Positions 20,484 through 25,086 of a stretch of DNA of 64,000 nt are shown here, one piece after another. The stretch lies in contig JAXHLW010000013.1 of the NCBI GenBank assembly GCA_034521815.1, forward strand, positions 1,376,001 through 1,440,000, written 5' to 3'. How positions within the stretch are numbered: position 1 is the first letter of the stretch; each line of letters opens with the position of its first letter. Source of the stretch: Trueperaceae bacterium (lineage in GTDB: Bacteria > Deinococcota > Deinococci > Deinococcales > Trueperaceae). Both the position numbers and the translations under genes were made by a program. The notes under the pieces were generated by a model that was not told the DNA's origin, ran no database searches, and was given only the letters and a program-made list of their open reading frames with translations.

Positions 20484-21764
20484 ATGCGCGATGCCACCGA
20501 ATATCGACGTCTTGCCGCGACGCTGCGTTGGTCTGGCCTCTTCGCCGCGGCCATCTTCGTCGTGGGCCTCACCGCCTGCAGCTCGCCGTTCGAGGGGTTC
20601 ACGCCCGACACCCAAGCGCCGACCCTGTACCTGTCTGGCGTGAGCGACGGCGACGTCATCACCACCAGCGAGGTGACGCTCACGGCCGTCGCGACCGACG
20701 ACCGCGGTGTCGCCTCCGTTCGTTACAGCGTTAATGGAAGCACGACGACCGCCTGCGACGCCTTCGGCGGCGACACCTGGTCGTGCGCCTCGATTCCGCT
20801 GACCATCGGAGCCAACACCATCGAAGTCACGGTCCGCGACGACGCCGGGAACGCTACGTCGCGCTCGCTCACCGTCTACTACCAGCCGCCCACGGACGCG
20901 TCCGGGTTCAACATCGAGGTCGTGTACTTCGACCAGTCCTACAGCGCCAGCCAGCTCGAAGCGTTCCAGCTCGCTGCCGACCGTTGGGAGAGCATCGTCG
21001 TCGGGGACCTCGAAGGCTTCCCCCTGAACCAGCCCGAGGGCGGCAGCTGCAATGTCGGTGAACCCGCCTACGACGACACCGTCGACGACCTGCTGATCTT
21101 CGTCACCAGCTTCACCGACGAAGCGGGCGGGCTACTCGGCGAGGCCGGCCCCTGCCTCAGTCGAACCAACGGCGACGACGCCGGCACCAACGCCGTGGGC
21201 TACATGCGGTTCGACACCGAAGACCTCGACGTCCTCGAAGCGGACGGCAACCTCGTCGAGACGATCGTGCACGAGATGGGCCACGTCCTCGGCATCGGAA
21301 CGAACTGGGAGTGGTCCTACCACGACCTTCTCGACTACCAGGCGAGCGGCAGCTCGCCGGACTGCGCGAACGCCGGTGGCTTCGTCACACCGCCCAGCTA
21401 TACCGGAACGAGCGGCAGAGACGCCTGGCTGGATCTGGGCGGATGGGGTCGGCTCCCTGTCGAAGAGTCGGGCGGGCTCGGCACGCAGTGCGGGCATTGG
21501 GACGATGCGACGTTCGGGAACGAGCTCATGACCGGCTTCCTCGATGGCGGCATGGTCAATCCGCTCAGCCAGCTGACCGTCCGCTCCCTCCGAGACATCG
21601 GCCTCACTGTCGACGTCTCCGCGGCCGATCCGTACACCCTCCCTTCCGGCGCTTTCCTGAGAACCCAAGGCGGCTTCGACATCGCCGCCGCCGAGATTCT
21701 GGTCCCGGCACGAGGCACCATCGACCCCGCCACCGGCGAGATCGTCATCTTCCCCGACCGCTAG
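20484..21764 (+). CDS. Lipoprotein with Ig-like domain and leishmanolysin-like (M8) zinc metallopeptidase
   Basis: Lipobox LTAC, Ig-like segment ([15 protein letters not shown]), HEMGHVLG, downstream HW and NELMT Met-turn. Confidence 0.82.
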
Positions 21765-21842
21765 CGAAGACCGCAGCCCAGCCCGCTTCCACCGCGTCCC
21801 CTGTCATTCGAGTGGGTCGCGGTGGTGTGGTAGGAACGGGCC

Positions 21843-22256
21843 ATGCACGCCCACCACGTCGCCGCCGTCGCCGTCCTCGTCATCCGGGACGGTCGCGTCC
21901 TGGCACTGCGGCGCTCACGAAACAAGGACGCCGCGCCCGGCGTGTGGGAGGCCCTCTCGGGCCGGCTGGAGCCGGGCGAGGATCCGCACCCCGCCGCGGT
22001 TCGCGAGGCGCTCGAGGAGACCGGGCTGACCGTGGACGTCGAGCGCAGGCCGTGGACCGCGTACGCCGCCGACCGCGCGGGCGAGCCGATGCTGGTGGTC
22101 GTGTACCGAGGGACCCCCGTCGCCGGCGAGCTGACGCTCAGCGACGAGCACGACGACCACGCCTGGCTGGACGCCGACGCGTTCGCGGCCAGGAGTCCGC
22201 TGACGGCGCTGGTCGAGGCGGTCAGGACGGCGCTTGCGGCGCCCGCGCCACGGTAG
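21843..22256 (+). CDS. NUDIX hydrolase
   Basis: Nudix box [22 protein letters not shown]. Confidence 0.9.
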
Positions 22257-22363
22257 TCGTCCGCACCGCCTGCCCGCCATCGCGAACGTCGATCGGTCAC
22301 CCGCACGCGATCTCCGTCCGACGACGGAGGACGGAGTCGACGGCGCGTCGTACGCTCGCCGGC

Positions 22364-22690
22364 ATGATCATCACGACCACCTCCACCCTGCAGGACCGAT
22401 CCATCGCCGACTATCTGGGCCTCGTCTCCGGCGAGGCGATCCTGGGCGCCAACGTGTTCCGCGACTTCTTCGCCGGCATTCGCGACATCGTCGGTGGGCG
22501 CAGCGGCGGCTACGAGCGCTCGCTGCGCGAGGCGAAGGAGATCGCGATCCGCGAGATGGAGGTCGCCGCCCGCGAGCTGGGGGCGGACGCGGTGATCGGC
22601 ATCGACCTCGACTACGAGAGCATCCAGTCGGGCTCCGGCGGCAGCATGCTGATGGTGTCGGCGTCCGGCACGGCGATCCGGCTCGGCTGA
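22364..22690 (+). CDS. YbjQ/UPF0145 family protein
   Basis: [24 protein letters not shown]...SASGTAI; leaderless TACGCT 7 nt upstream. Confidence 0.92.
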
Positions 22691-22721
22691 CCTGAACTCG
22701 GCTGACCTGAACGACGACGCT

Positions 22722-22750
22722 TTGACACCGCGCCCTGCACGGGCTAGGCT
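22722..22750 (+). promoter_or_regulatory. sigma70 promoter TTGACA-N17-TAGGCT for the aspS leader
   Basis: Consensus -35, 17-bp spacer and TANNNT -10, with an ATG 7 nt downstream. Confidence 0.8.
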
Positions 22751-22757
22751 CCGTGGC

Positions 22758-22844
22758 ATGCTCGCCCTGGGCCCCCACCTCGCGTACCGCACCGTCCCGA
22801 ACCTTCGGGACGACAATTCGCGTGTGGGGGGCCTCGGGGCGTAG
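22758..22844 (+). CDS. Putative leaderless Asn/Asp leader peptide, 28 aa (MLALGPHLAYRTVPNLRDDNSRVGGLGA)
   Basis: Short ORF at the predicted TSS; its only Asn/Asp codons are clustered (AAC CTT CGG GAC GAC AAT); a terminator and aspS follow. Confidence 0.7.
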   Translation: MLALGPHLAYRTVPNLRDDNSRVGGLGA

Positions 22845-22866
22845 GGCGCCGTCGATCGACGCGTTG

Positions 22867-22900
22867 GACCCCCGGGGCTCGGCTCCGGGGGTCTTTTCGT
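22867..22900 (+). terminator. Intrinsic terminator (attenuator) upstream of aspS
   Basis: GACCCCCGGGGC-TCG-GCTCCGGGGGTC followed by TTTTCGTT. Confidence 0.82.
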
Positions 22901-22935
22901 TGGATCGGTCCGCGAGCCCAGGAAGGTAGGTCGGC

Positions 22936-24225
22936 ATGAACGAGGACGGAAGCGAACGAACGCTGACGCGCGAGCTCCCCGCGCACGACGGGGCTCGCGT
23001 CACGCTGCGCGGCTGGGTGCACGCCCGCCGCGACCTGGGCGGCGTGCAGTTCCTGGTGCTTCGGGACAGGACCGGCGCGGCGCAGTGCGTGTTCCACGGC
23101 ACCGAGATCCCTTTGCAGGAGTCGTGCGTCGAGGTCGGCGGCACGGTCGCCGCCTCGCCCAAGGCGCCCGGCGGGTTCGAGGTCCAGGCCGACCACCTGC
23201 GCATCCTGAGCCAGGCGACCGAGCCGACGCCGGTCGAGATCTCGAAGGAGAGCTGGAACGCCAATCCCGACACCCTCCTCGCCTACCGGCACGTGACGGT
23301 TCGCGGGCTCGAGGCGCAGGCGATGCTGAAGGTGCAGGCCGAGCTGGTCGGGGCGTTCCGGGCGTACCTGGACGCCGAGGCGTTCACCGAGATCTTCACG
23401 CCGAAGCTGGTCGCGGCCGGCGCGGAGGGCGGCGCCGACATGTTCGAGGTGGACTACTACGGCAAGCGGGCGTACCTGGCGCAGTCGCCGCAGCTGTACA
23501 AGCAGATCATGATCGCGGTGCACGAGCGGGTGTACGAGACCGCGCCGGTCTGGAGGGCGGAGGCGTCGCACACCACGCGGCACCTGGCCGAGTACCTCAG
23601 CCTGGACGTCGAGCTGGGCTTCATCGACGACGACGGCGACGTGATGGACCTGCAGGAGGCGCTGCTGGGCTCGATGATGCGCCGCGTCGGCGAACGCTGC
23701 GCCGCGGAGCTCGCGCTGCTTGGCGCCGAGGTGCCCGACGTGACCGACCGGTTCCCCCGCATCGAGCTGCTCGAGGCCCGGAAGCTGGTCGAGGAGCGCT
23801 ACGGCCACGCGCCTGGCGGCAAGGACCTGGACCCCGAGGCCGAGCGGCTGCTGGGCCGCTGGGCCAAGGAGGAGCACGGCAGCGACTTCGTGTTCGTGAC
23901 CCGCTACCCGCAGGCGGCGCGCCCGTTCTACACCTACCCGACCGGCGACGGCCTGACGCGCGGCGTGGACCTGCTGTTCCGCGGGGTCGAGATCACCTCC
24001 GGCGGCCAGCGCGTGCACGAGCACGACGTGCTGGTACGCGAGCTCGAGAAGCGCGGCATGGATCCGCGCCGCTTCGAGGGCTACCTCGAGGTGTTCAAGC
24101 ACGGCATGCCGCCGCACGGCGGGTTCGCGATCGGAGCGGAGCGGCTCACCGCCCTGCTGCTGGGGATCCCCAACGTCCGCTTCGCCCGGGCGTTCCCGCG
24201 CGACGGGAGTCGGCTGCAGCCGTAG
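22936..24225 (+). CDS. aspS: Non-discriminating aspartyl-tRNA(Asp/Asn) synthetase (AspRS2, archaeal type)
   Basis: OB fold WVHARRDLGG and KAPGG (the His and Pro associated with non-discrimination), LAQSPQLYKQ, EITSGGQR and GMPPHGGFAIGAERL; short 429-aa form. Confidence 0.93.
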   Translation: MNEDGSERTLTRELPAHDGARVTLRGWVHARRDLGGVQFLVLRDRTGAAQCVFHGTEIPLQESCVEVGGTVAASPKAPGGFEVQADHLRILSQATEPTPVEISKESWNANPDTLLAYRHVTVRGLEAQAMLKVQAELVGAFRAYLDAEAFTEIFTPKLVAAGAEGGADMFEVDYYGKRAYLAQSPQLYKQIMIAVHERVYETAPVWRAEASHTTRHLAEYLSLDVELGFIDDDGDVMDLQEALLGSMMRRVGERCAAELALLGAEVPDVTDRFPRIELLEARKLVEERYGHAPGGKDLDPEAERLLGRWAKEEHGSDFVFVTRYPQAARPFYTYPTGDGLTRGVDLLFRGVEITSGGQRVHEHDVLVRELEKRGMDPRRFEGYLEVFKHGMPPHGGFAIGAERLTALLLGIPNVRFARAFPRDGSRLQP

Positions 24226-24343
24226 CGGCGCATGAAGCCGACCGGGCGACCGGCCGCCTGCGCACGTGGCCACGCCGGTCGGGTTCGCGACGTAGACTAG
24301 ATCGTCCGTCCGTCCCGTCGTCCACCTTCGCTAGGGAGGAACC

Positions 24344-24988
24344 ATGCTTCGAGCCCTCGCCGTCGCTACCGCCGGCCTCGCCCTTCTTCTGGCCGCCTGC
24401 GCGCCCACGACCGCAACGTCGGGCGCCGACCTGTCGGCTCTCGACGCCGCCTGCGCCACCGAGCCAGCGCCCGTCGTCGCGGTGGTCCAGTTCGAGAACA
24501 CCACCGGCCGCTTCGGCACCACCGTCACGGGCGTCGAGGAGGCCGCGACCGCGCGCCTGATCACGCTGCTCAAGGAGAGCGGCTGCTACGACATCGTGGA
24601 GCAGAGCGAGCTGCAGAACGTGATGATGCAGCAGGGCCTCGAGTCGATGGAGCCCGAGGCGCTGGCCCGCGCCGCCGGCGCCGGCTACGTGATCACCGGT
24701 ACCGTCACGCGCGCCACGATCGCCGAGCCGGGCGTGTCGGTGTTCGGCGTCAGCCTGGGCGAGACCCGTGCGGACGTCGAGGTGGACGTGAGAGCCACCG
24801 ACATCATCACCGGCTCGATCGTCGTCTCCGAGACCGGTACGGGGACCGCCACGAGCCCGAACATCGCCGTCGACCGCATCCCGGCCGGCCGGATCGCGTA
24901 CGACGACCCGACCGTCGGACCGATCCTGGCCGACGCGTCGGCCGCGGCCGTGCGCGAAGTGGTGGCCTTCATCCGCGCCGAGTTCTGA
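24344..24988 (+). CDS. CsgG/HfaB-family lipoprotein
   Basis: Lipobox LAAC; VAVVQFEN...YVITGTVT...VDVRATDIITG pattern of the CsgG/TolB_N-like fold. Confidence 0.72.
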   Translation: MLRALAVATAGLALLLAACAPTTATSGADLSALDAACATEPAPVVAVVQFENTTGRFGTTVTGVEEAATARLITLLKESGCYDIVEQSELQNVMMQQGLESMEPEALARAAGAGYVITGTVTRATIAEPGVSVFGVSLGETRADVEVDVRATDIITGSIVVSETGTGTATSPNIAVDRIPAGRIAYDDPTVGPILADASAAAVREVVAFIRAEF

Positions 24989-25086
24989 TCGAGCCGGCGC
25001 CGACCAAGCCGGCCCTAACGTGCGCGGCGCCTGCCTCCCGGCGGGCGCCGCGCACGCTTGGATCCGCCGCCGAAACCTGAGGCGGC

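Follow-up and report, generated by a model that had tools for sequence, protein, structure and literature searches.

Leader-peptide attenuators are classically known from E. coli trpL, hisL and thrL and from pheM, which precedes pheST, and synthetase genes in Bacillota are usually controlled by the T-box riboswitch (RF00230). The mechanism of leader-peptide attenuation is summarised by de Groot et al. (2014; PMC4007540), who mapped the transcription start sites (TSS) of D. deserti and predicted 14 leaderless leader peptides for attenuation. Table S9 of that paper lists Deide_10019, a putative leader and proposed transcription attenuator in front of the gene annotated as the non-discriminating kind of aspartyl-tRNA synthetase. 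This leader is 14 aa long, including four Asn and two Asp, and its TSS is the A of its ATG, with TEX enrichment from 32 to 556 and from 137 to 466 reads (PMC4007540). The reads given there amount to 117-724 on the 45 nt of the leader and 28-118 on the 1290 nt of the gene, a ratio that cannot be used as a measure of termination because the library piles reads at 5′ ends.

The original prediction for the DNA analysed here named no earlier description known to it of such an element for a Deinococcota aspS2, which has to be corrected, since the D. deserti counterpart was predicted in 2014 and its start mapped (PMC4007540, Table S9). As far as the accessible text of that paper goes, the element occupies one table row, without structure, survey or test. 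In our literature search, with attenuation surveys in subscription journals lying outside it, the structure of the switch, its order-wide conservation and a functional test were not found in print; no paper on the regulation of aspS2 was found, only PMC4007540 treats the element, and the accessible text of PMC4833913 mentions neither Asn nor Asp.

The leader region of aspS2 and its helices

The features found at the aspS2 locus of the window (the whole stretch of 64,000 nt that was analysed) are the following:

22722..22727, + strand: -35 hexamer TTGACA; a TTG-led hexamer with the same spacing is present in 135 of 148 loci
22745..22750, + strand: -10 hexamer TAGGCT (TANNNT type), after a 17-nt spacer
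22758..22844, + strand: leaderless leader-peptide ORF (uORF) of 28 codons, with the TAG stop at 22842-22844
22763..22778, + strand: segment 1, pairing with segment 2 in ribosome-free RNA; its position is not conserved in the window's family
22809..22817, + strand: control codons Asp-Asp-Asn (GAC GAC AAT), whose ends lie 20, 17 and 14 nt upstream of the segment 2 core
22829..22839, + strand: segment 2, 5′ strand of the antiterminator (core 22832-22839), within the last uORF codons
22845..22865, + strand: small hairpin that, at this locus, closes the 2:3 helix loop; its sequence varies in relatives
22866..22897, + strand: terminator hairpin 3:4 with a short U tract; segment 3 at about 22867-22878, segment 4 at about 22882-22894
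22920..22926, + strand: Shine-Dalgarno-like AGGAAGG of aspS2, read from the sequence, outside the hairpin
22936..24225, + strand: aspS2, archaeal-type non-discriminating AspRS, 429 aa, matched by NF003483 and TIGR00458

The uORF opens with the ATG at 22758, 7 nt past TAGGCT; every element of the promoter originally proposed is in place, and the start site is predicted at or adjoining the A of this ATG. A generic promoter scan of the window region called no site at this promoter, because TAGGCT matches only three of the six positions of TATAAT. The 28-aa ORF was also as described, its only Asn and Asp codons being the clustered N15, D18, D19 and N20 (22800-22817), with AAT at N20. The proposed cluster N-L-R-D-D-N is present, but N15 is not conserved (the two nearest loci, L001 and L002, have Ile there), and the conserved control core is D-D-N at 22809-22817, with N15 outside it. 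When the same promoter and ORF rule was applied to the whole genome, 144 promoter-like sites yielded 12 short leaderless ORFs, three of them followed by a terminator, and three D/N codons in a row were found in only one of the 12. The arrangement exceeds chance, as judged by this genome-wide rarity together with its recurrence in relatives.

One of the three terminator-bearing ORFs lies at G000:C13:567704 (+), where a promoter is followed by a 12-codon leaderless ORF with two Phe codons, a terminator and a 328-aa ORF that presumably begins like pheS. It is probably the pheST leader that is also listed for D. deserti (PMC4007540). Upstream of the aspS2 promoter, a 108-aa gene (22364-22690), with NF002776 as best match just under its cut-off, looks leaderless as well (TACGCT, 7 nt, ATG; 22351-22366), and an exact 15-nt tandem duplication at 22682-22711 straddles the stop codon of this gene, directly before the promoter.

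The product of aspS2 is, by its sequence, a non-discriminating AspRS (ND-AspRS), as had been proposed: it scores 550.7 bits with NF003483 (cut-off 353) and 385.1 bits with TIGR00458 (cut-off 368.4) and stays under the cut-offs of the asnS and bacterial aspS models. A proline in the anticodon loop, which we take to be a determinant of the non-discriminating enzyme, is present in the AspRS of 134 of 148 loci. In D. radiodurans and T. thermophilus, a second AspRS makes Asn on the tRNA together with GatCAB (PMC4206432, PMC2330236). The window genome matches their enzyme set, with gatB, asnS and a bacterial-type aspS each over the profile cut-off (GatCAB being judged from gatB) and a tRNA-Asn carrying U1-A72, which is given as a criterion for the partner pathway in PMC4206432. 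An AsnB-like gene at G000:C13:418726-420006 (+) is closest to the asparagine synthase B model, with 469.6 bits against a cut-off of 499, and AsnB-like genes over the TIGR01536 cut-off were found in 23 of 41 genomes, including the window genome, with a patchy distribution in relatives; one was also noted at L173:6586-8214. The neighbours of the AsnB-like gene of the window genome gave no clue to its role, and the search with the asnA profile found none in 41 of 41 genomes. Because of the AsnB-like gene, aspS2 may not be the only Asn route of the window genome, and the candidate explanation that it is the only one was unsupported, even though asnA is missing.

Regarding the helices, the terminator-like hairpin at 22866-22894 consists of 13 pairs, 10 of them G-C, with a short U tail and about -26.7 kcal/mol, which agrees with the 3:4 pairing proposed at the outset. 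The proposed 2:3 antiterminator was recovered in full, 22829-22839 pairing with 22870-22880 over 11 bp, including two G-U pairs. The 1:2 pairing exists, but it is longer than had been claimed, since in the ribosome-free fold 22763-22778 pairs across 22824-22842. At this locus, the idea that stalling masks segment 1 is not supported: a ribosome modelled with D18-N20 in its A site has a footprint that begins at 22791-22797, downstream of segment 1 (22763-22778), which it would leave uncovered.

In the folding model, only the RNA ahead of the ribosome was folded, with a 9-nt downstream footprint. At the window locus, the terminator and antiterminator states are within 0.2 kcal/mol of each other when only the RNA from 22827 is free and 8.9 kcal/mol apart two codons later, when only the RNA from 22833 is free. 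Allowing segment 1 to pair across the stalled ribosome lowered the probability of the 2:3 helix at D18-N20, to 0.24-0.57 with the 9-nt footprint and 0.27-0.88 with a 12-nt footprint. Once segment 4 was exposed, the terminator won at every ribosome position in the model; therefore, the switch must be kinetic and decided during transcription.

We interpret the element as a translation-coupled transcription attenuator of the classical type, built on a leaderless uORF before aspS2, and give this reading a probability of roughly 85%. The dependence on ribosome position is modelled; that the uORF is translated, that transcription terminates and that the outcome responds to tRNA charging is what we infer. 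At the window locus, RNA polymerase would start at the AUG of the uORF and a ribosome would load on the 5′ end of the transcript. When charged tRNA-Asn and tRNA-Asp are plentiful, the ribosome would pass D-D-N, reach the stop codon and cover segment 2, so that in the model segment 3 would pair with segment 4 and transcription would end near 22897. If either tRNA were short, the ribosome would wait on D-D-N and leave segment 2, 14-20 nt ahead, bare; segment 2 would then capture segment 3 ahead of the synthesis of segment 4, and the polymerase would read into aspS2. More ND-AspRS would in turn mean more Asp-tRNA-Asn for GatCAB and more Asp-tRNA-Asp, the supply of both by this enzyme being established enzymology. 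RNA that is not translated would fold into 1:2 plus 3:4 and terminate.

Conservation of the uORF and of the proposed switch in relatives

For the comparison, 172 aspS2 loci were fetched, from which 14 duplicates, five loci with short upstream DNA and five without a gene start were dropped, leaving 148; these include the locus of the window itself and two from outside Deinococcota. The close relatives are mostly labelled Trueperaceae, and the other loci were grouped into families f2-f5 of the same order. The uORF was picked by promoter geometry alone, ignoring codons, and a short uORF was obtained in 129 of the 148 loci, with ATG or GTG 6-11 nt past the -10 (7 nt in 65). Among the 19 misses, 13 gave no promoter, three no start codon and three an ORF running into the gene; by eye, D/N-rich ORFs were also seen in five of them (L069, L097, L107, L111 and L116). 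The uORFs range from 7 to 63 codons, and throughout the D/N cluster keeps the frame of the ATG. Their residues comprise 13.2% N and 13.1% D, compared to 1.6% and 4.5% in the AspRS itself. In 123 of 129 uORFs, a pair of D/N residues falls within a span of three codons; when the frame is shifted, this is so in 1 and 5. In the window's family, the uORF core is D-D-N, with L-G-A-stop about six codons further on. The element is thus kept, on sequence grounds, in most relatives examined from the Deinococcus phylum.

We generated a set of 126 uORFs by setting aside L054, L060 and L100, which have no D/N cluster. A hairpin of -12 kcal/mol or lower follows the stop in 124 of these, and 108 have a U-rich tail (at least 4 T in 8 nt), the 18 without one belonging mostly to family f4. 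After the exclusion of L147 and L172, for which the script had picked the wrong hairpin, the best ungapped partner of the terminator 5′ arm starts between -15 and +6 nt from the end of the stop in 119 of 124 loci, a position matched by shuffled sequences in 6.5% of trials on average. In 116 of these 119 loci, at least one D or N codon has its end 9-24 nt upstream of segment 2. Segment 2 lies inside the last uORF codons in the window's family and, unlike there, mostly just past the stop in families f2-f5; the distance from the control codons to segment 2 is conserved, as is the predicted masking of segment 2 once the ribosome has reached the stop. In the folding model, the 2:3 helix formed in 118 of the 119 loci when the ribosome stood on one or another D/N codon but not when it stood at the stop, and the last permissive ribosome position falls on or shortly past the D/N cluster. 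These loci, like the aligned leaders below, had been chosen beforehand for having a helix close to the stop, and they include kin that are not independent.

The alignment comprised 49 of 55 candidate window-type leaders, one near-duplicate and five leaders of other families being left out. The 2:3 helix is paired in 91% of its cells, with two-sided changes in 5 of 8 pairs and none of 500 shuffles as high, and the 3:4 helix in 94.5%, with two-sided changes in 6 of 9 pairs; for cells paired and covariation score, both helices beat nearly all shuffles and all slid controls. Judged solely by gapped duplex energy, the advantage of the 2:3 helix over shuffles is only modest (median z -1.2; z below -1.5 in 52 of 126). 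The 1:2 pairing clearly exceeds that of shuffles in family f2 (0.92 versus 0.54), where segment 1 overlaps the last control codon, but hardly does so in the window's family (0.70 versus 0.58) or in f4 (0.58 versus 0.52). The comparison of upstream regions therefore bore out the proposed D/N-rich uORF and its covarying 2:3 and 3:4 stems, and conservation, covariation and the folding model together support ribosome-coupled attenuation with D/N control codons.

The leader has been lost at L014, L031 and L060, with the promoter kept; the first ATG at L014 and L031 is the aspS2 start, and L060 has an 8-codon ORF overlapping that start. At L020, L098, L101 and L135, the upstream gene extends up to aspS2. 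A link between loss of the leader and absence of asnS was discarded, given that asnS is over the cut-off in nine of ten genomes with absent or degenerate leaders and the tenth has a partial match; the genomes of L014, L031 and L060 still have asnS. The uORF of L027, at 63 codons, apparently underwent an in-frame insertion; N-N-D is still in frame and the end of the uORF is unchanged. RNA contigs for L142 (23 runs, four of them examined) show flat depth, in one of the four with a gap over the hairpin, and are uninformative on starts, ends and levels.

At six loci (L064, L066, L067, L068, L070 and L071), a Shine-Dalgarno-led uORF of 20-24 codons ending in Asp-stop lies between the first terminator and aspS2, with a second hairpin at most 2 nt past the Asp-stop; its energy is about -20 to -31 kcal/mol, and at most of these loci it has a U tail. 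This second stage is a possible tandem attenuator, in which a ribosome on the last Asp codon or on the stop would cover the 5′ arm of the second hairpin. L073 has the second hairpin and no SD-led ORF. Family f4 loci such as L141-L143, L148, L149, L151, L158, L161 and L164 have leaders of 7-10 codons and a strong hairpin with no U tract, and these leaders may end transcription otherwise or act on translation.

The tRNAs proposed to be sensed and rival readings

Both amino acids are represented among the codons in working position, 9-24 nt before segment 2. In the 119 loci, N is found there in 94, D in 100 and both in 78, with N only in 16 and D only in 22. AAT makes up 140 of 265 Asn codons in the uORFs versus 118 of 781 in the gene, and GAT 116 of 267 Asp codons versus 402 of 2265, other U/C codon pairs shifting far less; the U-ending codons would be favoured for their slower wobble decoding. 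We lean, by a little, towards dual sensing of Asp and Asn. The separate gene for a discriminating AspRS makes Asn the more probable principal signal, and a second, Asp input is plausible since Asp codons stand in working position as often. The same switch could also sense Asn-tRNA alone, the Asp codons serving as slow codons, as part of a D-D-N or D-D-P pausing peptide or in RNA pairing, and this we hold to be a substantial, though less probable, alternative. It is favoured by the discriminating AspRS, which is over the cut-off in the window genome and present in all five checked genomes with only D in working position (a link of Asp-only leaders to loss of that enzyme was thereby rejected), by seven minimal f4 leaders that have N codons and no D, by AAT being the last Asn codon in 101 of 124 leaders, and by the indirect tRNA route being the only Asn source in D. 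radiodurans and T. thermophilus (PMC2330236). Against it stand the frequency of D in working position, the enrichment of GAT and two leaders, L030 and L044, that keep the switch with no N codon at all.

A terminator that constitutively dampens aspS2, with the GAY-AAT dicodon kept as a -10-like hexamer for an internal start bypassing the uORF, would account for a second gTSS of D. deserti, located 93 nt before aspS2 and 7 nt past an Asp-Asn-coded GATAAT and TEX-enriched from 48 to 139 and from 40 to 121 reads in the mapped data, and for AAT following D in 69 of 81 cases. GATAAT is, however, found in only 39 of 126 uORFs and is absent from that of the window, the excess of AAT extends to positions that follow other residues (53 of 132 versus 118 of 781 in the gene), and a fixed element would not hold D/N in the ATG frame over 7-63 codons; we regard this reading as improbable. 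Still less probable is a T-box-like or protein-binding leader, in which uncharged tRNA or AspRS would bind the RNA and the GAC/AAT triplets would be read with no ribosome. For other synthetases, autoregulation through binding of the enzyme is known, and T-box matches occur elsewhere in 34 of 41 related genomes, but none of them sits at aspS2, the D/N triplets stay in frame with the start codon, and an Rfam covariance search of 21000-25000 up to E 10 gave no T-box or other relevant match, its five matches being unrelated and far below gathering scores. That the hairpin merely terminates upstream genes and the ORF arose by chance is the least credible reading. On the + strand, nothing terminator-like lies between the upstream 108-aa gene and the hairpin, so the hairpin probably stops upstream read-through as well; yet the element accompanies aspS2 at loci that differ in their upstream DNA, a conserved promoter precedes it, and the chance reading is contradicted by the frame-specific D/N enrichment, the near-stop position of the 2:3 partner and the 2:3 covariation. 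The transcript from the second D. deserti start would lack segment 1 and could give basal read-through.

Returning to the attenuator with two inputs, we give even odds to a wider proposal, namely that one ancestral switch, present in all five sampled families, would be a gauge reading both enzyme-charged tRNAs, with U-ending codons sharpening the response, that exerts feedback control on tRNA-dependent Asn synthesis and has been retuned by lineages to Asn-only, Asp-only, U-less and two-stage forms.

Comparison with described attenuators

The mechanism is a textbook one and a counterpart was predicted in 2014, which limits the surprise. The element would nevertheless provide a concrete feedback loop for aspS2 with predicted helices, its natural variants (Asn-only, Asp-only, leader deleted) are ready controls, and it would serve as a worked example of attenuation that acts on a leaderless mRNA and through Asn/Asp codons.

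The Deide_10019 peptide closely resembles those of family f2, with near-identical peptides at L117 and L133, and is therefore taken as the likely counterpart of the window element. According to its table entry, it shares with the window uORF the same gene, leaderless initiation at the TSS, richness in N/D and a proposed role as attenuator; the window uORF is twice as long, has the D-D-N core and carries segment 2 inside its last codons. Like the element described here, the T-box senses tRNA charging and switches a terminator before a synthetase gene, whereas at the window locus there is no match to RF00230 and the signal would be read by the ribosome. With the classical attenuators, the window element has in common the short uORF, the cognate control codons, the 3:4 terminator, the competing 2:3 helix and the predicted masking of segment 2 by a ribosome that has reached the stop. 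It differs from them in its leaderless initiation, in control codons for both Asn and Asp, in a segment 1 that lies outside the modelled stalled ribosome and in a regulated synthetase that serves tRNA-dependent amino-acid synthesis.
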